Assembly (NCBI GenBank): GCA_945871905.1
Contig: CAMBXL010000006.1
Span: 34,033-98,032 of the forward strand
Direction of reading: 5' to 3'
Length of the DNA: 64,000 nt
From: Chitinophaga pinensis
GTDB lineage: Bacteria > Bacteroidota > Bacteroidia > NS11-12g > UBA955
Both the position numbers and the translations under genes were made by a program. Positions 16,493 through 33,157 of the stretch are shown one piece after another. The notes below the pieces were generated by a model, which saw only the letters and a program-made list of their open reading frames with translations, did not search any database and was not told the origin of the DNA. Numbering within the stretch: position 1 is the first letter of the stretch; the number at the start of each line of letters is the position of its first letter.

Positions 16493-16501
16493 AATTTCTA
16501 A

Positions 16502-17335
16502 CTAAACCGTATCCATAAAACTTTTTTCAACCTTGTGGAAGGTTACGATACCCACAAAGAGTAAAACAAACATATAGGTGGCACTGATTGCCAAGTTACT
16601 TATACTGAAAACACCCTCGCCCAAAAAACCGTATTTAATGGCTTCAATAATGGAACTCATTGGGTTCAATACATTTAACCAAAAACGCAAGTCTTCGGAT
16701 AAAATACTAAATGGATAAATGATAGGTGATGCATACATGAGCAACTGAACCCCAAAACCAACCAAAAATGTAAAGTCACGGTATTTGGTGGTTAGTGAAC
16801 TAATTAAAATACCAAAACCTAAGCCCAAACCGGCCATCATCATTACAAATATGGGCAACAGAACTACTGTCCAATTGGGTTGAATAGCACCAGTCCACCA
16901 GTAGTAAAAAAAGACAACTAAAAATAAAATAAACTGAATGCCAAACTTAATTAGGTTGGAAATAACAACCGACAAAGGCGTTATTAATCTTGGAAAATAA
17001 ACCTTACCAAACATGCCTGCATTACTTACAAAGGTGTTGCTAGTGGCTGTAAGGCAACTGGCAAAATAATTCCAAAAAGTTAAACCACTAAGATAAAATA
17101 GCAAAGGTGGTATGCCATCCGTTGAAATTTTGGCAAAATTGCCGAATATAAAGGTAAAAGTAACGGTGGTAAGAATAGGTTGAATAAAGAACCAAATAGG
17201 ACCTAAAACTGTTTGCTTATAAACCGCCACAAAATCTCTACGCACAAAAAGCATCAACAAATCACGGTATTGCCAAATAGCCTTGAAGTCTATGTCGTAC
17301 CATTTGTTTTGGGGTTTTATTTCGGTGGTGTACAT
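16502..17335 (-). CDS. wzm: Polysaccharide ABC exporter permease
   Basis: RRDFVAVYKQTVLGPIW, KVYFPR, YRD, NPMS. Confidence 0.93.
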   Translation of the reverse strand: MYTTEIKPQNKWYDIDFKAIWQYRDLLMLFVRRDFVAVYKQTVLGPIWFFIQPILTTVTFTFIFGNFAKISTDGIPPLLFYLSGLTFWNYFASCLTATSNTFVSNAGMFGKVYFPRLITPLSVVISNLIKFGIQFILFLVVFFYYWWTGAIQPNWTVVLLPIFVMMMAGLGLGFGILISSLTTKYRDFTFLVGFGVQLLMYASPIIYPFSILSEDLRFWLNVLNPMSSIIEAIKYGFLGEGVFSISNLAISATYMFVLLFVGIVTFHKVEKSFMDTV

Positions 17336-17344
17336 GGGGGGAAT

Positions 17345-17850
17345 GGTTATTGGTTAAGGGTTAATAGTTATTGGGTTTTGTAACCCACTAGTTTGAGCCT
17401 ATTCACGTGATGGAGTTTATACTGAGCTAGTTTACGCTGAGTCTATCAAAGGGAAGTAAAAGGTGGCATTCTAAATTGAAAAAGTCTCGATGACTATGGT
17501 TCGAGTGCCTCACCATGACATTCGAGAGTTTCTTATCGTTCAGAGTGGTTGTTTATGTGTTTATTGTTTCTCCTCGCGCTCTGCAGTTACTTATGTTCAC
17601 TCACTCTGCACACTCCCGAATGACTCGGGAATATTCTCCCATGCTCAAAGAGCATCTCTTTGCCCTCTTCTCCCAGCCCTCTCTGTGTTCTCCCGAATGA
17701 CTCGGGAGTGCTTTCTCAGTGCTCTCCGTGGTTAAATTCCAACTGTGTCTATGCTCGAAGAGCATCTCTGTGCGCTCTTTCTATATACTCTTTGCGCTCT
17801 CCCGAATGACTCGGGAGTGCTTTCTCTGCGTTCTCTGTGGTTAATTTCCT
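17345..17850 (-). repeat. Composite intergenic repeat cluster 1 (two A units, TCCCGAATGACTCGGGA x3, E module, heptamer run)
   Basis: Reverse-complement matches to 24849-25560 and 30565-31175; 17377-17428 matches 30980-31031 at 48/52. Confidence 0.9.
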
Positions 17851-17875
17851 CTCCTTGATATTACCCGTATTCTTC

Positions 17876-18385
17876 TCAAATCAACTTCAATTGCTTATAC
17901 GAGATATTAATTTTCATGCTTCCTTGTAAATTCTCAAAATGAACATATACAAATTCAGGATTTATTAACTGATAAACTTCGCCTTCCGTTCCTTTTAAAG
18001 GGCCACTTATCACCATTACTTTTCTGCCCTCTGATAATTGTTTGGAGTCAACTTCACTCAATTCTACACTATAACCGTGCTGTACTAAGGATTTTATAAT
18101 ATCAATTTCATATTGGTAAACAATTGCAGGCCTTCCATTGAATAATAAATAGGATACAAAACTGTCATAAGTTTTCAGTGAATCTATGTTGATTGTTGAT
18201 TCTTTGACAAACACATACGAATTAAACAAAGGTTTTTCTATAGTCTGTTTCCGATCTTTTCTTGTTGATACTGACTTTACTAATGGTAAATACACTTCGC
18301 TACCCATTACAGTTAGTTTATCGGCTAACCTTTTTTCATGTCTCGACTTGGTGTATATAACATACCATTTTTCTTTGTTTTTCAT
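17876..18385 (-). CDS. upxY: UpxY-family (NusG paralog) transcription antiterminator
   Basis: WYVIYTKSRHEK, PLFNSYVFV (NGN) and VISGPLKGTEG (KOW); heads the polysaccharide operon; ATG at 18385 preferred to TTG at 18391. Confidence 0.9.
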   Translation of the reverse strand: MKNKEKWYVIYTKSRHEKRLADKLTVMGSEVYLPLVKSVSTRKDRKQTIEKPLFNSYVFVKESTINIDSLKTYDSFVSYLLFNGRPAIVYQYEIDIIKSLVQHGYSVELSEVDSKQLSEGRKVMVISGPLKGTEGEVYQLINPEFVYVHFENLQGSMKINISYKQLKLI

Positions 18386-18388
18386 ATT

Positions 18389-18425
18389 CAAAGCACCGCC
18401 CCCTCAGTTACATTATCTGTCTGAG
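18389..18425 (-). promoter_or_regulatory. ops-like pause element with upstream hairpin
   Basis: Minus strand CTCAGACAGATAATGTAACTGAG-GG-GGCGGTGCTTTG directly before upxY; 8/12 match to enterobacterial ops GGCGGTAGCGTG. Confidence 0.5.
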
Positions 18426-18524
18426 TATGGTCTATTAAAATCTACTGATACCAATGGTTTCAGTAATTATTTATTTATTTCTTAAAATAGTTAAACAATT
18501 AACTTTTTTAAGTGTTTTTTTTAT

Positions 18525-19055
18525 TTACTTCTCCCACAATAATAAATAAGAATTCTTTTCATTATTGATTAACTTATCAACTTGTTTTGCCTCACTGTAC
18601 ACTTGATAATTAATGGTTTTCTCAATTTTTTTCTTGATTTTCAAACACAATTCATCCATAAAAACCACATCAATTTCTCCAACAATAAGCAAATCTATGG
18701 TTTCGCTGTTTAATCCTCTTGCAAATGAGCCACTTAAATACACTTTTTTAACATCTCCCAAACGTTTAACTAAATATTCAACTATCCAATCAATGCCTGT
18801 ATACTTTAAAATAATGCTGCTTATATCGTTAAATAAAGGATGCTGCTTGTTTGCTTGATAGATTTTTTTGTTGCCTTCAAACTGTGAATTAAGCATGCCT
18901 GCTTCTTCTAATTTGTTTAACTCTAACCTTATGGCATTGGTACTTTCTCCAAACTCCGATTCCAAATGCCTTAAATAAGACTTTGTCTCACTGTTTAAAA
19001 AGAATTTTAAAAGCAGTTTGATGCGTGTTTTGGAAGAAATTAAGGATTCTATCAT
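18525..19055 (-). CDS. Winged-helix (ArsR-like) regulator with C-terminal minimal nucleotidyltransferase-like domain
   Basis: SKTRIKLL...YLRHLESEFGESTNAIRLELNKLEEAGML; YLSGSFARG...TIDLLIVG. Confidence 0.8.
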   Translation of the reverse strand: MIESLISSKTRIKLLLKFFLNSETKSYLRHLESEFGESTNAIRLELNKLEEAGMLNSQFEGNKKIYQANKQHPLFNDISSIILKYTGIDWIVEYLVKRLGDVKKVYLSGSFARGLNSETIDLLIVGEIDVVFMDELCLKIKKKIEKTINYQVYSEAKQVDKLINNEKNSYLLLWEK

Positions 19056-19058
19056 CTG

Positions 19059-19083
19059 AATTGAGTAGCAAAACTACTCAATT
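19059..19083 (-). promoter_or_regulatory. Perfect 10-bp inverted repeat (operator) overlapping a -7 promoter box
   Basis: AATTGAGTAG-CAAAA-CTACTCAATT; minus-strand TAGTTTTG (TAnnTTTG) at 19069-19076; 3 nt from the ATG. Confidence 0.75.
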
Positions 19084-19297
19084 ATTTGGTGTTATGCAAG
19101 TGCTATTTAACTGTAATGTGTTATTTTTAAGTTAATAGCTTTATTCCCAATTTCGACTCTCCTTTGCGAGTCATTATATTCTCTGTATTGCTTATTAATC
19201 GCAATCTCAAGTGCTAAGTGCAGCTTTAAAGAATCTACTTTGTTTTAAAAGAAAGTCACACCCTTTTTTGAATACTTAACAGGCACAATAAAACAGT

Positions 19298-20017
19298 TTA
19301 ACTGTTCCACAAATTGTATTTCAAAATACAGTAAATCGCCCTGAAACCATCTTTCCATCCTATTTTTTTGCCTTCTTCATAGGTTCTGCCGTAATACGAA
19401 ATTCCAACTTCATAAATTCTTATCCTTGGAATGCGTGCTATTTTTGCTGTTACCTCTGGCTCAAAACCAAATCGATTTTCTTTAAACTGAATCGACTTAA
19501 TAATTTCTGACCTAAATACTTTGTAACAAGTTTCCATGTCTGTTAGGTTTAAATTGGTAAACATATTGGACATGAATGTCAATATTTTGTTGCCTATAGA
19601 ATGCCAAAAAAACAAAATACGATGCGGATTACCCCCCATAAAACGACTACCATAAACCACATCGGCTACACCATCCTCCAATGGCTTTAACAAAATATTA
19701 TACTCGTTTGGATCATATTCCAAATCGGCATCTTGAATAATGATATAATCCCCCTGTGCTTGTTCTATCCCCTTGTGAATTGCTGCACCCTTTCCCTGAT
19801 TAACAGCTTGCTTGTATAACTGAATGTCTAAATGTGGATTTTCAGCTTTGTACTTTTCTATCGTTTCTTGGGTTTGGTCCGTTGAACAGTCATTAACAAT
19901 CACTATCTCTTTCTGAATATTGTTCAATAAATTAACCTGCTGAACTTTGTTCAATATTAAATGTATGGTGGCTGCTTCATTGTAAGCAGGAATGATAATG
20001 GATAACTTTTTTGACAT
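19298..20017 (-). CDS. GT2 glycosyltransferase (polyprenol-phosphate sugar synthase-like)
   Basis: [34 protein letters not shown]. Confidence 0.92.
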
Positions 20018-20019
20018 GT

Positions 20020-21048
20020 TTAAGCTTGTCTTTTTATATAGGGATTTAAATCGTAAATGCGTTCTATTATTTCTACCACTTTCAAACCTTCTAAGGCATT
20101 AGTGGTAATGGTGTTTCTATGCAACAATGTGTCCACTACATTCTCGAATATATAATTGTGATTGGCAGCCGAACCTTTGTATGGTCCATAATCATTGGCA
20201 GGATTTGATGGCGGCAATTCAGGCATTTCGTAATCTTTGACATGACAATAAACCACTTCATTCATGTATTGTCCACCAATTTTTATACTGCCATTCTTGG
20301 CAACTACCGTTAAGCTGCTTTCTAAATTTTGATTCCATACAGCAGTTGAATAATTCAAACTACCCATTCCGCCATTTAAAAATCGGAAATTCACAAAACC
20401 ACTGTCTTCGAAATCTGTAAGGTCTTTGTGTGTAAAGTCATCAAATTTTGCTTGAATGTCTTTAATATCACCAAACAACCAATACATAATGTCGATAAAA
20501 TGCGAAAATTGCGTAAACAATGTTCCTCCATCTATAGACAATTGACCTTTCCACCCGTCTTTTTTATAATATCTCTCATCGCGGTTCCAGTAACAGTTAA
20601 TCTGAACCATGTAAATATCTCCTAAAATGCCATCGTCTATTACTTTTTTAATCCATTCTGAAGGAGGTGAATATCGGTTTTGCATTACGCAAAACACTTG
20701 CTTGGAAACTTGTAATGATTTAAAAATAATTTTTTCACAATCCGCTTTATTTAATGCCATTGGCTTTTCTATCACTACATGTTTTTTGTGCTCCAAGCCC
20801 ATTAAGGCGTGTTCAGCATGAAACCCATTTGGCGTTGCTATACACAACACATCAAACTCAATACCACTAGTCAAAAGCGCCTCTAAACTATTGAAAAACG
20901 GAACTGAATATTGTTCGATACCCAATTCTTTCGCTTCTCTTGTATCTGCTAATGCTACAAGTTCTGATTCTGGATGGCGAGTTACCATTTCTGCATGTCG
21001 CTTACCAATGTGACCACAACCTACAACTGCTAATTTAATTTTCTTCAT
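20020..21048 (-). CDS. Gfo/Idh/MocA oxidoreductase (WlbA/WbpB-like)
   Basis: [36 protein letters not shown]. Confidence 0.88.
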
Positions 21049-22775
21049 TCTTCTTTAATTAATTGATTATTTTGAATCCTGTATTTAATGTTGCAAATAT
21101 TAATGATTTTACTTTGATGTGCAACAATAATTATTGCCACATTGTGGTGATTGATTTGTTCGATACTTTCCTGAATAATCGCTTCTGTTTCTTCATCCAA
21201 AGCACTAGTAGCCTCATCGAAAATCAACAACTTGGCATTTTTATACAATGCTCTTGCTATGGCGATCCGTTGTTTTTGGCCTTCACTAATTTTAGAACCG
21301 TTTTCACCAATAACAGAGTAAATACCATTAGGAAGTAACTTTACAAATTCTTGTAATCCCGATTCTTGTATCACTTTTTGTAACTTTTCTGCATCAAATT
21401 CTCGACTAAGTGTAATGTTTTCATGCAGACTTTTGTTAAAAACAAATGGATTTTGATGAACAAACCCTATCTGTGTCCACCAACTATTGATATGGTCTTG
21501 GTCTAATTTTACGCCATCAACCGTTATATTGCCTTCTTGAGTTTTAATGAGCCCTGTAATAATTTTCATTAAGGTGCTTTTACCACTTCCACTTGCCCCA
21601 CGAATCCCTATTTTTTCTCCCGGTTTTACTTTAAAAGAAATATCTTTCAATAATGGTTTTTCTGAATCGGAATATTGATAAGAAATGTGATTAATCTCTA
21701 ATTCCTTATTAAATTCTACATGGTGGTGTTTGGCTAATACCGGATCGTGCGTTTCGAAATTAAAAAAATCTACAATGTGCTGATACATTTTTAACTTCAT
21801 GGCAGCAACCAACATTCTGTTTAAAGCAGGCACTAATCTAAATACTGATAACACAAATACTGCCGCCAAAGTTCTAAGTCCCGCAGGATTATCAGAGAAA
21901 AAATAGCCGTAAATAACCAAACAAATTACCGCAACCAATACAACAATTTCATTGGCTCGGGCAGGAATACTTTGATAAAACACGGAGCGCAAATCATTCT
22001 TAACCAAAGGCTGCTGTTTGCGTAAAAAATCATTGATAAAAAACACTGAAGATTGATTGAGCTTAATATCTACGATACCATTTAATCCAAAATTTAAACT
22101 GCCAATGGTTTCTTCTCTCAACTGTTTGGATTGTTCTCCTAATTGATAAATTTTTTTCTTTGTCATTGTATTGACAAGATAAAAGGCTGGCGCAGTAATG
22201 AGTACGATAACCAAAAATAAGGTTGGATTAAAAACCAATATCAATGTTACGATAAACAAAAGCACAATAAATTCACCAAATAAACTCACAAATGGCAATA
22301 AAATACCTGTTGAAAAATACAAAGAATGAAAATGTATTTTGTTAAATAATTCAGAAGTTCCCTTACCAACAAAAGATTCATAAGGCTTACTGATTAAGTT
22401 ATAAAATGATTTTTCGGTAAAATGATGAACAACCTCAACCGCTAAATTATTTAATTTTTTTTGTACATAAACAGCAACAATATTCTTGAAAATAAAAAAA
22501 CCAACTATTAAACCAATAAGTGTTATTAAAAACTGAGCTTCGGTTTGAAAATTAAAAGTTTGAAAAACCCATCGTAATTTGCTACTTTTATTTAAAAAAT
22601 TGCCGTCAATGGCTAACATCAAAACTGGAACAACGGTTGCTAAAGCAATTACATCTGCAAGTGAAACTAAAGCAGTAATAATTAACAAAACCTTTCCCCT
22701 CCTTCGTTCTTTATTGTCCAATAGTTTACGAAGTGAACGAATAGTATGTTTTATAGCATTGGTTTTACTAGGCAA
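21045..22775 (-). CDS. Fused TMD-NBD ABC exporter (PglK-like glycan flippase candidate)
   Basis: N-terminal TM helices; GASGSGKST, ISEGQKQR, FDEATSALD. Confidence 0.85.
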   Translation of the reverse strand: MPSKTNAIKHTIRSLRKLLDNKERRRGKVLLIITALVSLADVIALATVVPVLMLAIDGNFLNKSSKLRWVFQTFNFQTEAQFLITLIGLIVGFFIFKNIVAVYVQKKLNNLAVEVVHHFTEKSFYNLISKPYESFVGKGTSELFNKIHFHSLYFSTGILLPFVSLFGEFIVLLFIVTLILVFNPTLFLVIVLITAPAFYLVNTMTKKKIYQLGEQSKQLREETIGSLNFGLNGIVDIKLNQSSVFFINDFLRKQQPLVKNDLRSVFYQSIPARANEIVVLVAVICLVIYGYFFSDNPAGLRTLAAVFVLSVFRLVPALNRMLVAAMKLKMYQHIVDFFNFETHDPVLAKHHHVEFNKELEINHISYQYSDSEKPLLKDISFKVKPGEKIGIRGASGSGKSTLMKIITGLIKTQEGNITVDGVKLDQDHINSWWTQIGFVHQNPFVFNKSLHENITLSREFDAEKLQKVIQESGLQEFVKLLPNGIYSVIGENGSKISEGQKQRIAIARALYKNAKLLIFDEATSALDEETEAIIQESIEQINHHNVAIIIVAHQSKIINICNIKYRIQNNQLIKEE

Positions 22776-22963
22776 TTGTTAATTAGGGATTTATAGTTTC
22801 CGTTGCAAAAGTAAATAGAAATATTCTATTTTATTATGTTTGAATTTGAACATATTGAAGTTGTATTAGTTGATAATTTAATATAGAGGTTTGTGTGAAA
22901 GAATTTACAGTGTTGTATAACTTCATTCCAAATAGTTACTATTAACACTCAACCATTACAACA

Positions 22964-24256
22964 TTAACTAACCCTGTAAAGCAAAGTTCTCTCTATCGCC
23001 CTTGCCAACTCTTTCTCCACCTCTACTTCGTTTGCAAACTTTTGCCAATCGGCTACTGCTGCTCTCACTTGCTCAATCAATTGAATCGGTTTTTTAATGT
23101 TCATTTTGTCTGCAATGGATATAAAATCCTTGAGTTCAAAATCCGTTCTTTTGCCTTCAATACTCAAAGCATGTTGACTCACCCAAGGACTGTTGGGTCG
23201 GTATGCATGGCAAACATCAAATGCAGGAGACAATCGCCAAACGCCGCTTTTGTCCATTAAAAAAGCAAAGTTTTTGGTGTGGTCATCGCAATTGCGAGCC
23301 ATCACATTAAAAACCATCCTAATAAACAGTTGTTGAGCATCCGAATATGGCAAACCTAACAAACGCATGGTTTCAAACAATTGCTCATAGCTGTATAAAC
23401 CCACTTCGTTAAAATCGTAATGTTGCAATCCGCAAAAACTCTGCATGTGCAGTTTTTCATTACCTTGTCTATCAAACCTTTTAGTCATAAAATGTGCTCT
23501 GCCATGTTCCTCAAAAAGTTGACAGTCTTCCATAACGATACCAGCTTGTCTTGCCATTAAATAATAAGCCATTTCAACCCTTCCGTAGCCACTGCTAGCG
23601 CCAAATTGGGTATCAGTAACGCCATCAAATTTGATTAACCAATGCTCAAAACCCTCTGGAATGTCTGCTTGTCCGCTTCTAACTTGTTTCGTCTTGGGAT
23701 TAAAAGCAATGACAGCCTTGGCTCTGGCACCTCCTGCCGAAGTACCAATTTTAAGCATATCAACCAATTTTTTTTCATCCTCAATAGTCAATTCGCTTTT
23801 AAAATCTTGTCTGTCTTGTAAAATTTTTTCGGCTATTTGAACCAAACTATTGATTTCCAAATCAAAATCTTTGTCGTCGGGTTTAGGATAATTGGGGATA
23901 AATTCTAAAGCGCCCATCCCTCTGTTGCCAATAAAACAAAGTATTTCAACCGGATTCAGACTATTACTCGGTCTGTTGTTTTTTTGCAACCATGCATTGA
24001 TAATGGCATTTCCATATTTATCAGGCAAAACATCAGCCAACAAACCAGGCAATCCCTTAAAAGTATTGATATTGCGCAATTCAGGAAATGAAAATATTGA
24101 ATTTTGATTGGCTTTCGGCATCTTAATTGGGCTAATATCCCAACCTTTCAATTTAAAAGAAGTATCAAACTCAAAACTAGCAGTAGCACTGGCAGTGTTC
24201 CAAGCTATGGCTCCAACCAAATTGCCCCAAATATTGATAAAAGCAGTTGTTATCAT
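22964..24256 (-). CDS. hipA: HipA-family Ser/Thr kinase toxin
   Basis: LPDKYG, GTSAGGARAK, KRFDR, NCDDHTKNF, LSPAFD. Confidence 0.92.
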   Translation of the reverse strand: MITTAFINIWGNLVGAIAWNTASATASFEFDTSFKLKGWDISPIKMPKANQNSIFSFPELRNINTFKGLPGLLADVLPDKYGNAIINAWLQKNNRPSNSLNPVEILCFIGNRGMGALEFIPNYPKPDDKDFDLEINSLVQIAEKILQDRQDFKSELTIEDEKKLVDMLKIGTSAGGARAKAVIAFNPKTKQVRSGQADIPEGFEHWLIKFDGVTDTQFGASSGYGRVEMAYYLMARQAGIVMEDCQLFEEHGRAHFMTKRFDRQGNEKLHMQSFCGLQHYDFNEVGLYSYEQLFETMRLLGLPYSDAQQLFIRMVFNVMARNCDDHTKNFAFLMDKSGVWRLSPAFDVCHAYRPNSPWVSQHALSIEGKRTDFELKDFISIADKMNIKKPIQLIEQVRAAVADWQKFANEVEVEKELARAIERTLLYRVS

Positions 24257-24262
24257 TAGCGT

Positions 24263-24616
24263 TTACCAATCGGATTTTTTATCATCTTTGGGTATGGATT
24301 TGGAAGCTCTTTGACGTTTTTTATACTTGGACTGCATTTCTGCTAGTTGCAAAGGACTTAACTCTGTTTCTATCTCAAAAAAAGAAAGAAAATCTAATTG
24401 TCCCAATGCTCGCATTACTTGAATAAAAGTGAGTAAATTGGCTCCACCACCCGATTCCAATTCAATTAATGTGCTGCGATTAATGCCTGCATCTGCGGCC
24501 AACTGCGCTTGTGTTTTGTTGATGTTTAGACGCTTATTTTTAATAAAATCGCCCATTTTCTGTAAGAGTGCTTTATCGGTAAAAGCTTTGTAGTTAATGT
24601 TGTAATTAGTTAACAT
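24263..24616 (-). CDS. hipB: XRE-family HTH antitoxin
   Basis: KTQAQLAADAGINRSTLIELESG; directly upstream of hipA. Confidence 0.85.
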   Translation of the reverse strand: MLTNYNINYKAFTDKALLQKMGDFIKNKRLNINKTQAQLAADAGINRSTLIELESGGGANLLTFIQVMRALGQLDFLSFFEIETELSPLQLAEMQSKYKKRQRASKSIPKDDKKSDW

Positions 24617-24761
24617 TGTAATTATAAAACCACCTTAATGTTGATTTTACACTACAAAGTTAACACATAATTTTGATAATAAAAAACAGATAGTAAAAAT
24701 TGTTGCTTTTAACCAACATTAGTAATATAATTTGCAATTAATGTTAATATAATTCAACATT
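24596..24761. promoter_or_regulatory. Four palindromic operators AATGTTG-N8-CAACATT plus -7 box of hipBA
   Basis: Sites start at 24596, 24637 (degenerate), 24699 and 24740; minus-strand TAACTTTG at 24655-24662. Confidence 0.7.
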
Positions 24762-24782
24762 ATATTTAAAACGTTGATTTCT

Positions 24783-25550
24783 ATGACAAAAAACTCTCTA
24801 CGTTGAGCTTTTTAATGGAAACTCTAACCACGGAGAACAAAAAGGGAGAATTAACCACAGAGATCGCAGAGAAAACACAGAGAACACAAAGAGACTGTTG
24901 AAAAGAGAGCACAGAGATGCTCTTCGAGCATGGGGGATTAATCAACACCGAGACATATAGGTGAGCGCAGAGTGATGAAAACAAAAAGAACACAAAGAAA
25001 AAATTATAGCCTCGGGTTTTAACCCGAGGATATGAGTAAACACACACAATCCTTTTTGGCGACTTTTTTGCTTCTCCCTTGCAAAAAAGATGACAAAAAG
25101 CACTCTTCGGAAGGCTTTTTAATGGAAACTCTAACTACAGAGAACATAAAGGGAATTTAACCACGGAGAACGCAGAGAAAACACAGAGAGCGCAGAGTGA
25201 ATCATTAAGAGGGGAAAAAGAGAACACAGAGATGCTCTTCGAGCATGGGACTATAAAAGGTTGGCGTAGTGACATGAAATCCTCCATAGGTGGACAAGCG
25301 CTCTGGGTGAAAATAAAACAGCAATTAAACAATCACGCTGAACGTCGTGAAACAATTTTAACCTCCTAAACCCATTAAACACCTAAACAGCTAAACAATC
25401 ACGCTGAACAGCGTGAAACAAATAAACAACTCAACAACTAAACGCATAAACAATTTAAACCTCCTCAACCTTTTAAACCCTTTAAACACTCTTCGAGAGC
25501 CTTAGAGTGACAAACACCTAAACAAATAAACAATCACGCTAACAATCACC
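24783..25550 (+). repeat. Composite intergenic repeat cluster 2
   Basis: A units 24849-24934 and 25154-25249, 94-bp double hairpin 25006-25099, B module about 25263-25305, C modules 25327-25354 and 25393-25420, TAAAC-rich runs, CTCTTCGAGAGCCTTAGAGTGAC. Confidence 0.9.
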
Positions 25551-25632
25551 CTCTAATTTGAGATTGTTTAATTTTTGTTGTGCCAAATTTTAGTTTTCTT
25601 TGCAAACAGAAACAGACTAATTAAAGAGCATT

Positions 25633-26220
25633 GTGTTTGAAATAACCCCAAAAGAACAAATTTTAAAATCAATTAGGAAAAACTTGGTTCAACCACTTAG
25701 TAATCCCTATGCAAACATTAATTTGGACCTACAAGTTACTTCGCCTTCTATGCAGTTTGCTGATGAAAATTTTGTCGTTGAATGGACTAATGCTGGCTAT
25801 TACTTCCAAACCTATAATGGTCCTTACGATTTATTAAATAAAATTTCTGCTGGCATACAATCTTTTCAATTGGGCACTCCTGCCTTGTCTGAAAAATATT
25901 TATGCGGTTTATTTGACGAACACGAACTTCAGTATTTAAAACCTGAAACAATGCACTCTTCACTCATTTCAAGTGTTGCTAAACTTGAAAGTGGTTCGCA
26001 AACACTCTTCTTCAATTCGGAAATTCAACCCGTTATTCATTTCAATAAAGCAATCAATCTTATCCTATTCTGTTCGGCTCAACACATTGAAAACATTGAA
26101 GAAAATAAATATTTTAGTGATATTAGCATTAAAAACAATGTTAAAGTACAATTGCAAATGGACTTCTTTAAATCCTTTGAAAAAGTAATTCTATTGGTCG
26201 AGGAAACGCCCTTAGCTTAA
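25633..26220 (+). CDS. Hypothetical protein, divergent LUD (LutC/YkgG)-like
   Basis: N-terminal KEQILKSIRKNL and LESGS resemble Bacteroidota LUD proteins; preceded by a TTTG-type promoter. Confidence 0.45.
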   Translation: MFEITPKEQILKSIRKNLVQPLSNPYANINLDLQVTSPSMQFADENFVVEWTNAGYYFQTYNGPYDLLNKISAGIQSFQLGTPALSEKYLCGLFDEHELQYLKPETMHSSLISSVAKLESGSQTLFFNSEIQPVIHFNKAINLILFCSAQHIENIEENKYFSDISIKNNVKVQLQMDFFKSFEKVILLVEETPLA

Positions 26221-26224
26221 AGTT

Positions 26225-28441
26225 TTATTGCCCTAAAGCAATTTTATAAAACGCATTTGAACTTTTTCCCTCTATTCTTAAAATGTAGATATTGTAAGGC
26301 AAATTAAACAACAATTCACTTTCTCCTATCTTATTCTCTAATAGCAATTTACCGTCTATTGAATAAATCTTTAGTTTTACATTTTCTGTACCATTCCAAA
26401 CCAACAAATTACCGTTTTTTACAGTCCACATTTTTTCTGATGATAATGGTGAAATGCTTAACTCTGTTAATACTAAACCATCACTTTCGTTTACACAACC
26501 AAAATTATTATAGGCCAAAACTTTATAAGTGCCGTAACCAAGTGAATTAATTGTAGTTTTACTCGTATCCACTGCTTTATTATTGTAATACCAAACATAA
26601 AAACCACTTGCATTGGTACTCAAAACGCCATTGGACTCTGAAATACTTGGTTTGTTAGGAATAGCAACTGTATTTAATTGCAGTGTATCTGAATAATAAA
26701 AACAAGCCGAATCAGTCAATCTAACATGGTATTTTCCGGCTAAATTAGTTGTATGAGTTTGTGCTGTTCCTTGCTTTACAAAAACGCCATTTCTATACCA
26801 ATCGTATGTGCCCGACTTGCCTGAACTACTTAAGGTTGTATTGCTGCCTTCGCAAATAGAATCTACACCTGAAATATTCATTTTAGGTACTATTCTTGGA
26901 ACTATTTCCATCGAAAAACTGTCATTGGCATTAAACCCATCATTGGTTTGATTGGGCAAATAAATCCATCCGTATATTCTTTGTTTTTCTGGCTTTAAAT
27001 ACAAATTTGTTACATTAATAAAACTCGATTGTTTTGAACCTAATGAAGATGACAATATAATGGTAGTGTCTCTTTCAATCTCATTGATAAAGTATTTTAA
27101 CTTAAATCGGGTTATTGGATTAACACCATAGTTTGTTAAGTACAATTTTAAATTAAAATCCAAGCAAGCATTGTTATGAACTGCACGGTCGGGCATCACC
27201 CCCAAGTCTTGAGCCATACAATTTGAAGAAGGACTTATTTGTTTGGTTTTAGTAGCCACAATATTTTCCCAAACATCCCATGTAGCTGTTCCTTTGATTC
27301 TTACGTGTGAAACGAAACTTAAATTACTGCCATTATTTGTAGCAAATTGTGACCCATTTATTTTATTAAAACACAAGTTTGAAGAAGGGTCGGCGTGTTT
27401 GGTAATAGCAATACTAGGGAATATCATACTGAACCCATAATCTTGATGTCTGAACAACCCTAAAAGTGTTGAAGCTGTTGAAGGTGAAAATCTTTTGTAA
27501 TGACAAGAGCGAATATTAAACTGATAATCCGCATACAGCACACAAGCATCGTTATTGTACTTACCTCCCAATAAAACCATTGTGTCATTAATAATTTGAA
27601 TGGAACTCAGTGAATTTAATGTCGAGTTTACAATTGTTTTAGTGCTAATTGGCGAAAAAGCAGTATCGTAAATACCAATTCGTTTGTCACTTCCTACTAC
27701 ATACAATTTTTGATTAATGCGATCATAGTCAGCATCTGTAATATTGAAATCATTGGAACTGATTATTGAAGTTAAGCTATCTCCATTTGCTTTAAGCTTA
27801 ATAAGTCCCAATTTAGAACCATATTTTTGAAATAAAAGAATATTTGAACCATTGGTTTCTGCCATTTTACTAATGACTGAAGAGGTATTGGTAGTCCTGT
27901 AATCTAATAATCTGAACCATTTAAGATTGCCATTTGGTGCTATTCTAAATACACCACTTCGTGAACCCCATTCACCAAATTCGTAATAGGATACGTTTGT
28001 TCTTACTGAAACTAAGTAATCACCATTGTTAAGTTTAATAATTTTATCGGGGTGTTCATCTAAACCTGTATTGTACCAATTGGCCCATATAATTCTTCCT
28101 GATGTGGTGGCTTTGATAATACCCACATTTGAAGTGCCTATTCTTCCCAAAACCAAAAATGTAGAATCGTTTTCCATGATTCCGCCTTTACCATATATGT
28201 TCTGAGAAATACTTCCATTTTGAGTTTTAAAAGACATTGTCCATTCTTCGCCATTTTTAAAACTAAACCTTTGAACACTCAATAAATCGATAGTGCCAAA
28301 TGCCATAAAACCAGAATCAGATGCTTGAATTCTGTATATATTACTCGTTTCATTTACATTGCCATAGCAGTTTACAGACTCTTGTGAAAATGCTATAAAA
28401 GGGAGTAAAGAAATAATAATTGCAACTGTTTTTAAATTCAT
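26225..28441 (-). CDS. Secreted protein with beta-propeller-like and Ig-like repeats and a T9SS type A C-terminal domain
   Basis: Signal peptide MNLKTVAIIISLLPFIAFSQ; YDWYRNG, AGKYHV; C-terminal KIYSIDGKLL...IYILRI...YKI. Confidence 0.75.
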   Translation of the reverse strand: MNLKTVAIIISLLPFIAFSQESVNCYGNVNETSNIYRIQASDSGFMAFGTIDLLSVQRFSFKNGEEWTMSFKTQNGSISQNIYGKGGIMENDSTFLVLGRIGTSNVGIIKATTSGRIIWANWYNTGLDEHPDKIIKLNNGDYLVSVRTNVSYYEFGEWGSRSGVFRIAPNGNLKWFRLLDYRTTNTSSVISKMAETNGSNILLFQKYGSKLGLIKLKANGDSLTSIISSNDFNITDADYDRINQKLYVVGSDKRIGIYDTAFSPISTKTIVNSTLNSLSSIQIINDTMVLLGGKYNNDACVLYADYQFNIRSCHYKRFSPSTASTLLGLFRHQDYGFSMIFPSIAITKHADPSSNLCFNKINGSQFATNNGSNLSFVSHVRIKGTATWDVWENIVATKTKQISPSSNCMAQDLGVMPDRAVHNNACLDFNLKLYLTNYGVNPITRFKLKYFINEIERDTTIILSSSLGSKQSSFINVTNLYLKPEKQRIYGWIYLPNQTNDGFNANDSFSMEIVPRIVPKMNISGVDSICEGSNTTLSSSGKSGTYDWYRNGVFVKQGTAQTHTTNLAGKYHVRLTDSACFYYSDTLQLNTVAIPNKPSISESNGVLSTNASGFYVWYYNNKAVDTSKTTINSLGYGTYKVLAYNNFGCVNESDGLVLTELSISPLSSEKMWTVKNGNLLVWNGTENVKLKIYSIDGKLLLENKIGESELLFNLPYNIYILRIEGKSSNAFYKIALGQ

Positions 28442-28840
28442 TTTGGAAATTTTAATAAACTTCAAATATATTATTTTTAATTTTATTGTCAAATTATTAA
28501 AGAAAATGATTGTCATCATCTTTGTTAAAATAGTAACCATAATCATCTGACAAAAAAGTGATTGAAGTATCATTTACAAAAAAAATACTTTATGCCCATT
28601 TATAACCAACTAGTAACTATTCCTCAAAAGCGATAAAAATTAATTATTAAAGTGAATTTAAAATATTTATACAGATGATTTGGAAGGTAAACAACGTTTT
28701 TTCTATCATATCCATCTTTGGTATATAATTTATTAATGCTTTTAAGCTAATAACCTATAACTGTTAAACTCACTCGGAACAGCGTGAAACTATTAACCAA
28801 AAATCCATAAGTTTGCAGACAATTTATATAATAAAACAAA

Positions 28841-29752
28841 ATGACAGTAAGAGAAGATATTTTAAAAAGAATTGACGAAAAATATGCCGCCATCAATCAG
28901 AATTCGAATGTACACCTTGAGGGCTTAGTTCACGCCAATCCTATCACTTATTGGGATTATATTTTGCCTGAAGCTTTGTTGGGTTTACAAATACAGCGTA
29001 CTACCTTGCCCGATGAAATGGTGTTTATTATGTACCATCAAATCAATGAATTGTTATTTAAAATGATTCTTTGGGAGATAGATCAAGTCAGTAACGCTCA
29101 ATCCATTGAGGCCGCTTTTTTTACCGAAAAACTTCGTCGTGTAAGTCGTTATTTTGACATGTTATCCTCTTCTTTCGATATCATGGGCGATGGCATGGAA
29201 AAAGAACAATACATGAAGTTTAGAAACACATTGACGCCTGCAAGTGGGTTTCAAAGTGCACAATACCGATTAATTGAATTTGCATCAACAGAAATTATCA
29301 ACTTAATAGACAACCGTTTTAGGGCCACTATCGACCGTAACACTCCTATTGAACATGCCTTCGAACATTTGTATTGGCAAGCTGCTGGAAAAGACTTTGC
29401 TACCGGTCATAAAAACACTTTATTGGTCAATTTTGAGAAAAAATACAAGCATGATTTATTGTTGAAAATGGAAGATTATAACACTACTAATTTGTGGACT
29501 AAATTTCAGCAATTATCTGTACATGTTCAACAAGATGAAGCCTTGATAAAAGCCATGCGTCATTACGACTATACGGTGAATGTTAGTTGGGTAATGGCGC
29601 ATTACAATGCCGCGGGTAAATACTTAGGCAATGCCGAAGCCACGGGAGGTAGCGATTGGCGCAAATACATGCACCCCAAATACCAACGCAGAATTTTCTT
29701 TCCAGGGTTGTGGAGCGAAGATGAATTGAAAAATTGGGGAGAAGGGTTGTAA
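28841..29752 (+). CDS. kynA: Tryptophan 2,3-dioxygenase family protein
   Basis: YWDYI, DEMVFIMYHQINEL, PASGFQSAQYR, ATGGS; TAAGTTTG promoter at 28808. Confidence 0.9.
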   Translation: MTVREDILKRIDEKYAAINQNSNVHLEGLVHANPITYWDYILPEALLGLQIQRTTLPDEMVFIMYHQINELLFKMILWEIDQVSNAQSIEAAFFTEKLRRVSRYFDMLSSSFDIMGDGMEKEQYMKFRNTLTPASGFQSAQYRLIEFASTEIINLIDNRFRATIDRNTPIEHAFEHLYWQAAGKDFATGHKNTLLVNFEKKYKHDLLLKMEDYNTTNLWTKFQQLSVHVQQDEALIKAMRHYDYTVNVSWVMAHYNAAGKYLGNAEATGGSDWRKYMHPKYQRRIFFPGLWSEDELKNWGEGL

Positions 29753-29792
29753 GTAAAATACAATATTTTTCACCTATTTTCGTTTGGTGAAT

Positions 29793-30431
29793 ATGAAAAA
29801 GTTTTTGGTTTTTTTAGGCCTTTTTTACGCTTTAGGGTTATCTGCGCAATACAAATATCAAATAAAAGCCAATTTGCTTATTAGAAATGGCGGTTTTACC
29901 AATGGTTTTAATTTGGGTTTTGAAACCCTGCACAAGAAAACCAATTTTCTAATCGATTTCCAAACTTTTGCCGAATACCCTCAAGAGACAAAGAGAATAA
30001 GTAAAGAAAATCAAGTTTATAATTTAACTGAAATCAGTAAATACAATAGCTATTTGGGTACTAATTTAGGTATTATCACTTCATTAAGTGAATCTGATAA
30101 ATATTCTCTTTCTGGCGGCTTTAAAGCCTTTGTAGGTGTTCACACAAAAAGAACCATTGAAACACAATATACACTTGATTCAGGACAAGGAAATTATCGT
30201 TGGCGCAGCAATGATGTATCGCTATCAGATCATTTAACATCCACACAATCCTTTGCATATGGTGCCATACCTTTTGTGAGAATGAGTGCCAAACTAAGTC
30301 CACAGTTTTTCCTAATTCCTGAAATACAACTACCCATAACTGGAAATATAAATGCATCTCAAAGACAGGTCAATTTTAATATGGGTTTCAATATTTCTAT
30401 AGCTTATCATTTTATTAAAACTAAAGATTAA
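29793..30431 (+). CDS. Putative outer-membrane beta-barrel protein
   Basis: Signal peptide MKKFLVFLGLFYALGLSAQ; alternating beta strands; C-terminal ISIAYHF. Confidence 0.6.
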   Translation: MKKFLVFLGLFYALGLSAQYKYQIKANLLIRNGGFTNGFNLGFETLHKKTNFLIDFQTFAEYPQETKRISKENQVYNLTEISKYNSYLGTNLGIITSLSESDKYSLSGGFKAFVGVHTKRTIETQYTLDSGQGNYRWRSNDVSLSDHLTSTQSFAYGAIPFVRMSAKLSPQFFLIPEIQLPITGNINASQRQVNFNMGFNISIAYHFIKTKD

Positions 30432-30564
30432 AATATATTAAGTGTTGTAGCTGAAATTCACACAACAATTTTATTCGAATTGGCAACTCAGAAACCTACA
30501 CCAAACCAAGCCCAACGGTTGGATTTAGGTATTTTATGAAAGTAGAAGAGAGGTAGTTAGGGAG

Positions 30565-31175
30565 AATTAACCACGGAGAGCGCAGAGAATACACAGAGAG
30601 CGCAGAGTGAGGGAGGAAAAGAGAACACAAAGATGCTCTTCGAGCATGGAGGAATTAACCACGGAGAGCGCAAAGAATACACAGAGAGCTCAGAGAGAAA
30701 GGAAAAGAGAACACTGAGATGCTTGCTCTTCGAACATGGGAGTATTTAACCACGGAGAACGCAGAGAAAACACAGAGCACACAGAGATAAAAATAGAGAA
30801 TTAAAGAGGTGACACTGAGATGCTCTTCGAGCATGGGAAGAAAAACTTAGGGCGTAGTGAGGAGGAATCCTTCAAAGGTGTTCTAGCGCTCTGTGTAACA
30901 TTAAACACCTAAACAATCACGCTAAAAGTCGTGAAACCCATCAACCATTTAAACCCACTAAACACTCTTTACTTCGACAAGCTCAGTATAAACTCCCTCA
31001 CGTGACTAGGCTCAGCCTAGTGGGTTACAAACAAATAAATAATTTAAACCCCATCAACCATTTAAACCCATTAAACACCCTTCGGTACAGCCGCCAAAGG
31101 CGTCCATCCTCCATAGGCGGACACGCTCACAGGGTGACAAACAAATAATCAATAACGCTGAACGGCGTGAAACAA
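30565..31175 (+). repeat. Composite intergenic repeat cluster 3 (three tandem A units, then B, C, D, E and a nested hairpin)
   Basis: A units 30565-30649, 30653-30740, 30744-30837; CTTCGACAAGCTCAGT at about 30972; C modules 30911-30937 and 31155-31174. Confidence 0.92.
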
Positions 31176-31283
31176 ATAAAAATAATTTATAATCCCCTCA
31201 AAATCAGTTTGTTTACAAAAAAATTTTTAATTTAAATTGTTTAATTTAATTCGCATATAATTAAACTTTTCAAATAACAATTT

Positions 31284-31682
31284 ATGAACATTAAAAAATT
31301 AAATTTTAAAACACTAGCTTGGGCTATTGTGCCAGCTTTATTGATTGGATTTTCAGCTTGTGGTGACGATGAACCAACACCTCCAAGCACTACCACTCCC
31401 ACCAATACACTTAACAAAACTTCTTTAACCAATAATAAAGTTTGGTGGAATAAAGGAAGTGGGATTAAACATGATTTTAAACCAGATGGAAAATATAAAT
31501 CTTCTGGAACTTGGCGTTGGATTAACAATTCAGATACCATGGAGATTATAGGAACTTTAGGCGATCAACCTCAAAAATATCGATTTGCTTGGAATACTGA
31601 AACTGAATTAGAATGTGAACGTATTTCAGGGACAGGACAAGGTAGTGGATTGTTCTTAATGAAAACCACAGAGTGGCAATAG
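31284..31682 (+). CDS. Small lipoprotein (lipocalin-like fold possible)
   Basis: Lipobox FSAC followed by GDDEPTPP linker; GTW motif. Confidence 0.75.
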   Translation: MNIKKLNFKTLAWAIVPALLIGFSACGDDEPTPPSTTTPTNTLNKTSLTNNKVWWNKGSGIKHDFKPDGKYKSSGTWRWINNSDTMEIIGTLGDQPQKYRFAWNTETELECERISGTGQGSGLFLMKTTEWQ

Positions 31683-31703
31683 AATAATAAATCGATACAA
31701 ATT

Positions 31704-31730
31704 AAAGCGTTCTACGGAGCGCTTTTTTTT
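31704..31730 (+). terminator. Intrinsic terminator
   Basis: AAAGCGTTC-TACG-GAGCGCTTTTTTTT just after the lipoprotein stop. Confidence 0.8.
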
Positions 31731-31776
31731 ATGGAAAATTTAAGGTTAACAATACCTCCAAAGGAGGTAAATAGTA

Positions 31777-31870
31777 ATAGCCTCGGGTTTTAACCCGAGG
31801 TTATGAGTAAACACACGCAATCCTTTTTGGCGACTTTTTTGCATTTCGTTTGCAAAAAAGATGACAAAAA
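31777..31870 (+). repeat. 94-bp double-hairpin repeat, copy 2 (copy 1 at 25006-25099)
   Basis: 88/94 identity; CCTCGGGTT-TT-AACCCGAGG followed by CTTTTTTGC...GCAAAAAAG. Confidence 0.92.
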
Positions 31871-31934
31871 TTTTTGATTTAGGCATAACCAAATCAACAA
31901 CGTTATATATAGTTGTAATCTAATTGCTCATCAA

Positions 31935-32897: not shown

Positions 32898-33157
32898 CCC
32901 ACAAAGATACTAATATCGTTTTGAATTAAAAAGCAATTTTACCGATATTAAGAATAATCTACTTTATGCCAATTCTGTTCCACAATCTTTGCAAAACTTA
33001 ACCACTTGTTTATGGGTTTTATGCCTTAGTATTCAACAATCTATAAATAAACCCATTATCTCCCAAAAAAACGGCAGTGAATATAATGGTGGACACTTCC
33101 CTTTGACAGGGGCATTAGCTCATTAAGCGAAAGTTAAAAAAGGCGTATCTTTGCAAG

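Follow-up and report, generated by a model that had tools for sequence, protein, structure and literature searches.

Polar intergenic repeat islands in a Chitinophaga pinensis genome, probable mosaics of arms from GxxExxY and four-helix-bundle gene cassettes

Bacterial genomes contain many intergenic repeats that are unexplained. BIMEs consist of REPs in alternating orientation, assembled into mosaics with fixed linker motifs. To our knowledge, no function has been assigned to the GxxExxY/PDDEXK_3 proteins or to the four-helix-bundle '23S IVS proteins', both of which form very large families. The 2012 survey of PD-(D/E)XK proteins gave the function of GxxExxY/PDDEXK_3 as 'Unknown'.

Four described systems come closest to the repeat islands reported here. 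The BOX elements of Streptococcus pneumoniae are built of boxA, boxB in n copies and boxC (Croucher et al. 2011, PMC3049150). Like BOX as described in that paper, our islands are composite modular intergenic repeats, apparently with a middle module repeated in tandem a varying number of times, and with predicted stem-loops, strain-variable copy number and frequent clustering with other repeats. In contrast to the terminal inverted repeats, target duplications and fixed A-B-C order described for BOX, neither of the former two was found here, the order is partly fixed, and one of the modules is associated with a nuclease gene. The REP/REPIN/BIME repeats with their RAYTs (Bertels and Rainey 2011, PMC3116915, PMC3337134) are likewise short, clustered, hairpin-forming extragenic sequences, and again a small gene is flanked by cognate inverted repeats with many gene-less copies elsewhere. 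However, the enzyme here is of the PD-(D/E)XK fold and no Y1 HUH transposase, and instead of REP doublets the repeats here are arrays of phased 7-nt words with a palindrome. The Ssn GIY-YIG nucleases and their NTS/SRM repeats (Chenal et al. 2025, PMC11893778) offer a parallel in the single-domain nuclease gene with its own repeat on both sides and in the lineage-specific nuclease-repeat pairs, as reported there, although the nuclease superfamily is different. Finally, ORF-bearing 23S rRNA intervening sequences (S23p/IVP), as described for Coxiella (PMC4990558), carry a four-helix-bundle gene within complementary arms, and proteins of the same family (TIGR02436) are encoded at one of our sites in two related genomes. 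Unlike in those sequences, the site here is a protein-coding operon junction, and the gene is gone from the genome studied, leaving one-sided arms.

The window, i.e., the whole stretch of 64,000 nucleotides that was analysed, holds three repeat clusters. A preliminary description had placed them at 17345-17850 (minus), 24783-25550 (plus) and 30565-31175 (plus) and had seen common modules in them, on one strand per cluster; a repeat search of positions 17000-31500 bore out both points. The clusters and related features are as follows (C6 is the contig that contains the window).

16502..17335, minus strand: gene of a wzm-like ABC-2 permease, next to cluster 1 on its downstream side
17345..17857, minus strand: cluster 1, between wzm (16502-17335) and upxY (17876-18391)
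17379-17425: E module of cluster 1
17605-17638: third H1 hairpin of cluster 1
17641-17736 and 17751-17844: two A units of cluster 1, each with an H1 hairpin nested inside
Remaining parts of cluster 1: degenerate C, D-type hairpin, A/C-rich runs up to the wzm start codon
17876..18391, minus strand: upxY, gene of a UpxY-family NusG-like antiterminator (NF033644, 124.3 bits, cut-off 100), upstream neighbour of cluster 1
24783..25550, plus strand: cluster 2 (repeat search and genome-wide module matches)
24784-24846 and 25091-25153: P modules of cluster 2
24851-24932 and 25156-25247: A units of cluster 2
25005-25089: X module of cluster 2
25263-25309: B module of cluster 2
25333-25350 and 25387-25421: C hairpins of cluster 2, followed by TAAAC runs
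About 25487-25511: D hairpin of cluster 2
30565..31175, plus strand: cluster 3 (repeat search and genome-wide module matches)
30567-30648, 30655-30737 and 30745-30835: three A units of cluster 3
30851-30900: B module of cluster 3
30917-30934 and about 31153-31170: C modules of cluster 3
Between the first C and E of cluster 3: TAAAC runs and a D-type hairpin
30983-31029: E module of cluster 3
31077-31140: F module of cluster 3
31284..31682, plus strand: small lipoprotein gene (132 aa), with a shared promoter region and terminator
31775..31860 (C6:65807-65892), plus strand: X module on its own, downstream of the lipoprotein gene
C6:7376-8664, outside the window: GxxExxY cassette with mutually inverted arrays of phased words
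C6:106485-106868 and C3:196414-196797, outside the window: lipoprotein paralogs

Module A is a unit of 82-90 nt made of five phased CACAGAG-type words (CACAGAG, CGCAGAG or CACGGAG) and a 15-nt palindrome. In addition to the modules listed in the preliminary description, we distinguished P (63 nt) and X (86 nt), which in cluster 2 combine with A into a higher-order repeat of 306 nt (P-A-X), the hairpin H1 inside the A units of cluster 1, and module F, whose 3' half is homologous to B. D, E and F have one common frame, starting with AAACAC-YCTT and ending with GRGTGAC-AAACA. When single modules were folded and compared with shuffled sequences, hairpins stood out for C (z −4.7), H1 (z −3.0) and X (z −6.1); the single strands of B and E were no better folded than shuffles (z −0.7 and −1.0). 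The palindrome of A showed weak covariation, with two compensatory changes versus about six single mismatches in 34 units.

A 76-nt core of A occurs in five in-register copies across clusters 2 and 3 and matches cluster 1 in inverted orientation, with arms of 22-64 nt that are 78-97% complementary. Clusters 2 and 3 can be aligned at 72% across about 340 nt; positions 25215-25317 and 30803-30905, corresponding to the end of A plus B, are 75% identical over 103 nt. The similarity of E noted earlier between clusters 1 and 3 was recovered as 55-nt arms, 91% complementary (17377-17431 and 30977-31031), and B is indeed limited to clusters 2 and 3, with two nhmmer matches in the whole genome. The 21-nt head of A, with at most two mismatches allowed, has 17 occurrences in the genome and the reversed control pattern none, which excludes chance. 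As to the lack of a credible protein noted earlier, the ORFs of 81 and 88 aa overlapping clusters 1 and 2 have no Pfam match (E ≤ 0.1), and no remnant of a GxxExxY or four-helix-bundle gene was recognisable inside the clusters by tblastn (E ≥ 0.14).

About 40 places in the genome bear modules. Adjacent modules were co-stranded in 45 of 46 cases (25 of 26 without same-family tandem pairs), and the clusters are polar mosaics of several repeat families, as first described. The polarity of TAAAC/GTTTA words equals the module strand in nearly all islands with such words. With this co-stranding, the modules are not paired as inverted doublets of the REPIN kind, although C, H1 and X form hairpins singly, and within islands there is no strand alternation as in BIMEs. 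A cognate RAYT was not found either, as the only PF01797 match is below the cut-off and the one RAYT-like gene (C7:36949-37470) has another family of repeats on its flanks. The published SRM pattern has two matches in the genome and none in the clusters, and none of the six GIY-YIG matches of the genome adjoins an A or E module.

Nuclease genes flanked by the modules had been envisaged in the preliminary description, and one was found about 26 kb upstream of the window. It is a PF13366 (GxxExxY/PDDEXK_3) gene at C6:7909-8289 (E = 1.3e-41), also matching TIGR04256, which lies between inverted A arrays of five units on one side and four on the other, both pointing at the gene; its upstream and downstream flanks share 19 inverted matches. 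The three clusters contain only the words of this cassette, with neither the gene nor the inverted partner arm that is the defining trait of a cassette. In the protein, G24, E27, Y30, D67, E77 and K79 are invariant across 47 sequences. The structural model has a pLDDT of 95.6 and its best fold matches are Cas4, lambda-exonuclease and Hjc-type PD-(D/E)XK proteins, all of them weak (best E 5e-3, TM 0.5-0.6). From residues and model together, the nuclease is predicted to be functional.

The association of PF13366 genes with flanking repeats is general. Repeats common to the upstream and downstream flanks (E ≤ 1e-4) were present at 13 of 28 PF13366 loci in the genus and 12 of 30 phylum-wide, compared to 3 of 200 control small genes, all controls being from this genome only. 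Inverted 6-mer words, at least three per side, were seen at 8/28 (genus) and 4/30 (phylum) loci and at 11/508 controls, three of the latter being the two GxxExxY genes and one four-helix gene. The flanking words are of the C-R-C-N-R-A type. The arm type follows the protein clade: ACCACRRAG flanks were found at 6 of 15 loci in one clade and 0 of 15 in the other, and CGCAGAW flanks in the L040/L041/L030 clade, although related loci share flanks by descent, so that these counts and the flank counts above overstate independence. At the cassette site, the sister species G017 (about 95% nucleotide identity in matched flanks) and G002 have a different allele with other arms, with a DNA identity of 69% versus 95-97% for the flanking genes in G017, and G003 has a gene-less purine/pyrimidine remnant. 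Across the genus, A heads and the gene are weakly linked (PF13366 gene in 9/10 genomes with heads versus 13/23 without), and G006 has six A-type heads yet no PF13366 match at 97% completeness.

The second gene family appeared at the cluster 1 site. There, G017 and G045 carry a four-helix-bundle cassette, i.e., a PF05635/TIGR02436 ('23S rRNA IVS protein') gene between GTTTA/TAAAC arms with D/E hairpins, and the two proteins are 97% identical. The gene is absent from this site in the present genome, and G003 and G002 have short gaps. Inverted words were found at 15 of 29 four-helix loci, a count without a control set. TAAAC-rich runs with hairpins (C, D, E, F, B) belong to the type of arm found on either side of the four-helix-bundle gene.

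We think it probable, if not strongly so, that the three clusters are intergenic, gene-less repeat islands composed as mosaics of arm sequences from small selfish gene cassettes of two families. The higher-order unit formed by A and its companions P and X would represent the arm of the GxxExxY (PF13366, PD-(D/E)XK) cassette, and the A/C-rich runs of TAAAC words with embedded hairpins (C, D, E, F, B) that of the four-helix-bundle cassette. The polarity would be internal to the island, every module being embedded in, or copied beside, a directional word array. Nucleases or binding proteins of the gene-carrying copies may target the word arrays and stimulate copying or conversion from island to island, much like the relation between RAYT and REP or between Ssn and its repeats. 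No published description of such a gene-plus-arm design was found in the literature.

The preliminary description had instead proposed a non-autonomous higher-order element that combines several palindrome families and moves to new sites as one unit, which we regard as improbable. Some multi-module blocks do recur as units at non-orthologous sites, namely X-P-A in cluster 2, on contig C18 and at more sites in G017, and A-B-C in clusters 2 and 3, with a third occurrence in G003. The homology of clusters 2 and 3 is contiguous across module borders, A precedes the TAAAC-type modules in all four islands of this genome that hold both, and a stretch of 2.2 kb in G017, containing X-P-A units and two genes, corresponds to 36 nt in this genome. 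Part of the module order is kept in these cases, but C, D and E occur in any order genome-wide, and A, C and E are mostly found separately: TAAAC-type modules are present at only four of the nine A loci, and A at only two of the approximately 15 E loci. Seven of the nine A loci share one 132-kb contig, a distribution more in line with local duplication or conversion than with transposition. In addition, the genome has no Y1 transposase match at or above the Pfam cut-off, and the repeat around its RAYT-like gene is a different one.

Comparison with congeners also speaks against spread of the whole composite. In the more distant congeners compared, the corresponding site of each cluster either lacks it or holds other sequence instead. 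When clusters 1-3 were compared with G002, G003 and G017, their boundaries showed neither terminal inverted repeats nor target duplications, a weak test because the comparison sites carry other repeats. Cluster 2 is absent in G002, and in G003 it is absent together with hipBA; three differences set its G017 ortholog apart, namely a deletion of 80 nt between ACAGAGAAC direct repeats, an indel of 27 nt in a TAAAC run and a D-to-E hairpin swap. Cluster 3 has a single A in G017, a different inverted element with GTTAA/TTAAC arms takes its place in G002, and in G003 it is missing with the next two genes. Most of the G017 islands checked are at sites matching islands of this genome and differ in content by unit-level gains, losses and hairpin swaps, indicating change in place rather than transposition. 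The islands are shown to hold hot-spot intergenic sites, to be inherited vertically between sister species and to be altered in place, by a deletion between repeated purine words, by units being gained or lost, and by one type of hairpin taking the position of another.

The earlier alternative, a structured RNA leader or a regulatory element retained for the benefit of the gene downstream, appears slightly less probable still, whether as an antisense-blocking terminator array, a UpxY-related signal or an unstructured A/C-rich translation leader. All three clusters are oriented with their downstream gene, cluster 1 is directly downstream of upxY, and A/C-rich words reach the wzm start codon in four species (this genome, G000, as well as G017, G045 and G003). 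Furthermore, positions 17000-32000 contain 19 terminator-like sites (8.8 ± 3.3 in shuffles), of which 10 are within clusters, all opposite to cluster polarity. However, the orientation seen in the three clusters is not a rule: among islands between co-directional genes, eight agree and eight oppose. The counts are 11 and 12 with respect to the replichore and 10 and 9 for the local majority gene strand, and island polarity has no relation to the direction of genes or to the replichore. Rfam gave no match at gathering score in the whole window and none even at E ≤ 1 in 17200-31400, the covariation in the A palindrome is weak, clusters 2 and 3 are absent from the same junctions in G002 and G003, and unit numbers differ between sister species.

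Plain segmental duplication of whole loci followed by decay is very unlikely as a general account: the small lipoprotein gene has three paralogs, every one embedded in a repeat island (the third, on C3, likewise between islands), and cluster 3 shares with C6:106-107.6 kb the A array, a promoter region of about 85 nt, the lipoprotein gene and the terminator, but the middle parts of these two loci are unrelated mosaics, clusters 1 and 2 and most of the module-bearing places have no lipoprotein gene, and the lack of ancestral-segment remnants at every A/E locus limits this explanation to the lipoprotein loci.

Returning to the islands as gene-less mosaics of cassette arms, we tentatively extend this reading to a chain of events, itself rather doubtful as a whole. 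GxxExxY proteins could be site-specific nucleases or binders of phased CACAGAG-type arrays and constitute, with these arrays, a system for spreading repeats that parallels RAYT/REP and Ssn/SRM. The arm would in this lineage have become a higher-order unit of 85-90 nt multiplying in tandem, which would seed gene-less polar islands along with the arms of four-helix-bundle cassettes. The islands would then mark the junctions at which polysaccharide-locus and small-gene cassettes are exchanged.

Several islands are located at gene-content differences between relatives, including the upxY-wzm/O-antigen region, hipBA, a Fic gene and the small lipoprotein genes. Contig ends of G017 coincide with islands, and contigs of related lake populations begin or end at cluster edges; this coincidence with assembly ends is the practical side of the islands. 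Over short evolutionary time, the islands keep their sites and vary between sister species. The window links one kind of repeat island to the GxxExxY and four-helix-bundle families, and the five words and the palindrome of the A unit provide a concrete substrate for biochemistry.

The window covers positions 34033-98032 of contig C6. Its genome (2.5 Mb, about 34% G+C, 31 contigs, 99.7% complete) is placed in the Bacteroidota, which fits the UpxY-family antiterminator and the T9SS sorting domain found inside the window. The preliminary description had singled out three clusters with common modules, and a repeat search bore this out for the core of module A, for the end of A together with B (103 nt, 75%, clusters 2 and 3) and for E (55 nt, 91% complementary, clusters 1 and 3). 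The clusters and their neighbours are:

Window 17345-17857, minus strand: cluster 1, with upxY on one side and the wzm/wzt O-antigen exporter on the other
Window 24783-25550, plus strand: cluster 2, with a hipBA-like pair on one side and, on the other, a gene of unknown family (195 aa)
Window 30565-31175, plus strand: cluster 3, with a tryptophan dioxygenase/215-aa pair on one side and, on the other, a lipoprotein gene (132 aa) and then a Fic-domain gene

Module A is an 82-nt profile, and in cluster 2 it forms a 306-nt higher-order repeat with modules P (63 nt) and X (86 nt). The hairpin H1 is nested within A units at one position in cluster 1 and at a locus on contig C9. Modules D, E and F are built on a common frame, and the 3' half of F is common with B. 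The ORFs within the clusters had no Pfam match, and a tRNA scan found no tRNA. Several copies of X (window 25005-25089 and others, also in the sister species G017) show on the reverse strand a recurring ORF-like translation containing LGLKPEAI; no Pfam family matched it, and it is probably no more than a result of DNA conservation.

Self-comparison of intergenic DNA delimited 110 repeat islands, 22,225 nt in all, among which clusters 2 and 3 rank second and third in size. When module copies were counted across this genome by iterated nhmmer, A amounted to 23 units at nine loci, seven of them on contig C6, which carries the window, and E to 19 matches at about 15 loci; there were two matches for B, five each for F and P, and four for X. 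In the module map, 45 of 46 neighbouring pairs lie on the same strand (25 of 26 without the 20 same-family tandem pairs), and the counts of TAAAC versus GTTTA words agree with the module strand in nearly all word-carrying islands. X precedes P, P precedes A and A precedes B; A also stands before TAAAC-type modules in all four islands having both, while C, D and E were seen in every order. Random order and orientation had been named as the observation that would speak against a composite element. That observation is half borne out: inside an island the orientation departs strongly from random; the modules stand in largely free order and are mostly found separately.

The idea that a whole cluster moves as one unit draws only on homology at the level of blocks (X-P-A and A-B-C, with clusters 2 and 3 72% alike over about 340 nt). 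Element ends, duplications and a transposase were all looked for and not found, and with the modules mostly apart the spread as a unit proposed earlier was not upheld.

There are hints of a leader or other regulatory role as RNA. Of the 19 terminator-like sites at window 17000-32000, ten fall within the clusters, each on the strand that runs against its cluster, so their hairpins would stop antisense rather than sense transcription, and A/C-rich words stand directly at start codons. However, polarity towards genes is random genome-wide: by our own tally, eight islands run with their flanking co-directional genes and eight against, and the islands divide 11 to 12 with respect to the GC-skew strand and ten to nine with respect to the local majority gene strand. 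Island polarity thus shows no relation to flanking genes, replichore or local gene strand, and there was no Rfam match, either at the gathering score or at E ≤ 1. As a separate observation, the GC skew on C6 switches sign between about 65 kb, where it is −0.03 (near 7 kb it is −0.08), and about 106 kb, where it is +0.03; this interval starts at window position ~31000. With mnmG/gidA found at window 37826-39679, the window or its vicinity may contain an origin or terminus of replication.

We follow here the reading of the modules as arms of gene cassettes. Two families are concerned, one with a GxxExxY (PF13366) nuclease gene and one with a four-helix-bundle gene (PF05635/TIGR02436, '23S IVS protein'). 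The consensus of 38 A units from this genome and G017 contains five C[AG]C[AG]GAG words, at positions 6, 15, 26, 35 and 60, followed by a 15-nt palindrome. The palindrome is identical in 18 of 34 units, with two compensatory double changes and about six single mismatches, and is conserved mainly in sequence. Two GxxExxY genes lie upstream of the window:

C6:7909-8289, about 26 kb upstream of the window: 126-aa GxxExxY gene (PF13366/PDDEXK_3, E 1.3e-41; TIGR04256 'GxxExxY protein')
C6:32212-32583, just upstream of the window start: second PF13366 gene, bracketed by a non-A word

The first gene, inside a glycosyltransferase operon, is flanked by five A units on one strand and four on the other, and both arrays are directed at the gene. 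On its upstream side the second has CGCAGATTAA-type words and on its downstream side the complement of these, together with two 120-nt direct repeats, and its ortholog in the congener G045 has the same arms. In the protein of the first gene, G24, E27, Y30, D67, E77 and K79 are kept in 47 of 47 aligned sequences. Its predicted fold (pLDDT 95.6) resembles, by Foldseek, only PD-(D/E)XK nucleases, and these weakly (Cas4 SSO0001, E 5e-3, TM 0.5-0.6); a phmmer search of solved structures found no relative. At the site of the A-flanked gene, G017 and the congener G002 have a PF13366 gene with different arms and a DNA identity of just 69%, whereas the genes flanking this site in G017 are 95-97% identical. 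The protein match of the G017 gene is split into two pieces. In the congener G003 the site is a 167-nt gene-less gap with a purine-rich and then pyrimidine-rich remnant.

Of the 33 genomes of the genus, 22 have PF13366, as do 87 of the 151 Bacteroidota sampled. We scored sequence common to the 730-nt upstream and downstream flanks (E ≤ 1e-4) and, separately, inverted words, that is, a 6-mer occurring at least three times upstream with its complement at least three times downstream; in the genus, 30 loci were taken and 28 scored, two having one flank incomplete. With related loci not independent and all controls from one genome, common-flank sequence was found at 13 of 28 genus and 12 of 30 phylum loci against 3 of 200 genes coding for 90-200 aa and drawn at random from this genome, and inverted 6-mers at 8 of 28 and 4 of 30 loci against 11 of 508 controls, three of which were a four-helix-bundle gene and the two GxxExxY genes. 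Among the phylum loci, the best inverted words mostly conform to a single type (CACAGA, CACGGA, CACGAA, CGCAAA, CACCGA). Flanks with ACCACRRAG are limited to one clade of the protein tree (6/15 versus 0/15), and CGCAGAW flanks occur in the clade of the second paralog. Copies of the A-head pattern are most numerous here (17), followed by G017 (8), the congener G006 (6), and G002 and G045 (4 each), with 0-1 elsewhere in the genus; the reversed control pattern gave none apart from one in the congener G047. G006 has A heads and no PF13366 match, so the persistence of A arrays does not depend strictly on the gene; genus-wide, their dependence on it is weak, with G006 the one clear exception.

PF05635 matches occur in 28 of the 33 genus genomes. 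At the upxY-wzm junction of G017, a 121-aa TIGR02436 'four helix bundle protein' gene replaces cluster 1, and G045 has a 97% identical gene at the same junction. In both species, upstream of the gene lie a GTTTA-word arm with reversed D/E-type hairpins and then a TAAAC-word arm; downstream, a second TAAAC-word arm reaches the wzm start codon. The gap is 122 nt in G003, with TAAAC-type words still there, and 93 nt in G002. Given this gene and its arms, cluster 1 looks like two A units joined to the remainder of the cassette's right arm. No remnants of the proteins of either cassette family were detected within the clusters. This genome has three four-helix-bundle genes, all outside the window:

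C2:36604-36921: four-helix-bundle gene
C3:46145-46435: four-helix-bundle gene
C11:80898-81194: four-helix-bundle gene

They stand between housekeeping genes, one at a succinate dehydrogenase junction seen in many congeners, and have arm words other than TAAAC; at least two of the three have mirror-image short-word arrays on both flanks. A 5-mer present at least three times upstream, with its complement at least three times downstream, was found at 15 of 29 four-helix-bundle loci, a count without a control. Arm words vary from site to site, and the upxY-wzm junction was the only place where TAAAC-type arms were seen.

Comparison with relatives shows how the islands change in place. The flanking genes of G017 have about 95% nucleotide identity with this genome. 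Its ortholog of cluster 2 has a deletion of 80 nt between ACAGAGAAC direct repeats, which leaves P fused to the A tail, a 27-nt difference in a TAAAC run, and an E-type hairpin exactly at the position of the D-type hairpin here; in the cluster 3 ortholog of G017, a single A unit stands against three here. Flanks matching this genome were found for 13 of the 14 G017 loci examined, and at most of these this genome also has an island, with modules differing in number or kind (A A X P A versus A A A; E E versus D C; E E E versus D C E); one site differs by 2.2 kb including two genes. Clusters 2 and 3 are absent from the more distant G002 and G003. In G003 neighbouring genes are missing as well, hipBA to one side and the lipoprotein and Fic genes to the other; hipBA and cluster 2 form one 2.7-kb block (window 22884-25554), where G003 has 81 nt instead. 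G002 has hipBA but not cluster 2, and at the cluster-3 site an unrelated element with inverted GTTAA/TTAAC arms. From these matched sites and absences we conclude that the islands are old at their sites in the lineage of this genome and G017, with variable content, and coincide with differences in gene content.

A mosaic of E, A, A, X and A follows wzm at G017:C9:10949-11624 (L049/L061), exactly at the break in synteny with the O-antigen locus of this genome, placing repeat islands at the edge of a variable polysaccharide region. Contigs of four lake metagenomes over window 16000-33000 include pieces that start or stop where the clusters do. In the bins of clusters 2 and 3 the summed depth is raised 3-8 times, and one run has joints between modules of different clusters. 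As the matches involve repeats and other organisms, at 90% likeness and with short sides, no firm conclusion is drawn from them.

The gene next to cluster 3 belongs to a family of small lipoproteins (127-132 aa) without a Pfam or NCBIfam match:

Window 31284-31682: lipoprotein paralog, missing in G003 and G002
C6:106485-106868, outside the window: lipoprotein paralog
C3:196414-196797, outside the window: lipoprotein paralog

Over the first 28 residues, two paralogs agree fully and the third differs at one position, and each gene is embedded in a repeat island. Segmental duplication accounts for the likeness of cluster 3 to the 106-kb locus on C6, which have A array, promoter region, gene and terminator in common, but leaves the remaining repeat likeness unexplained.

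For islands of putative cassette arms, the closest published kinds are BOX composite repeats, REP/REPIN/BIME with RAYT, Ssn/SRM, and ORF-bearing rRNA intervening sequences; their defining features are mostly not shared here. A link to Ssn/SRM was rejected, as the published SRM pattern had no match in the clusters. A RAYT-like gene at C7:36949-37470, outside the window, has an HUH-type motif and a PF01797 match below the cut-off, and is flanked by its own GTGGTTGG...CCAACCAC-type repeat family, unrelated to modules A-F. A 2012 survey of the PD-(D/E)XK superfamily gives the function of PDDEXK_3 as unknown, and the GxxExxY/PDDEXK_3 papers examined, by passage or by title and abstract, do not concern repeats. 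Among the titles listed for four-helix-bundle and 23S intervening-sequence literature, none dealt with operon cassettes, and in these searches we found no paper that ties operon GxxExxY or four-helix-bundle genes to word-array arms. Three things are particular to this genome: an arm has turned into a higher-order unit of 85-90 nt in tandem arrays, this A arm co-occurs in one polarity with the arms of a second cassette family, and island content turns over at sites that are themselves retained.
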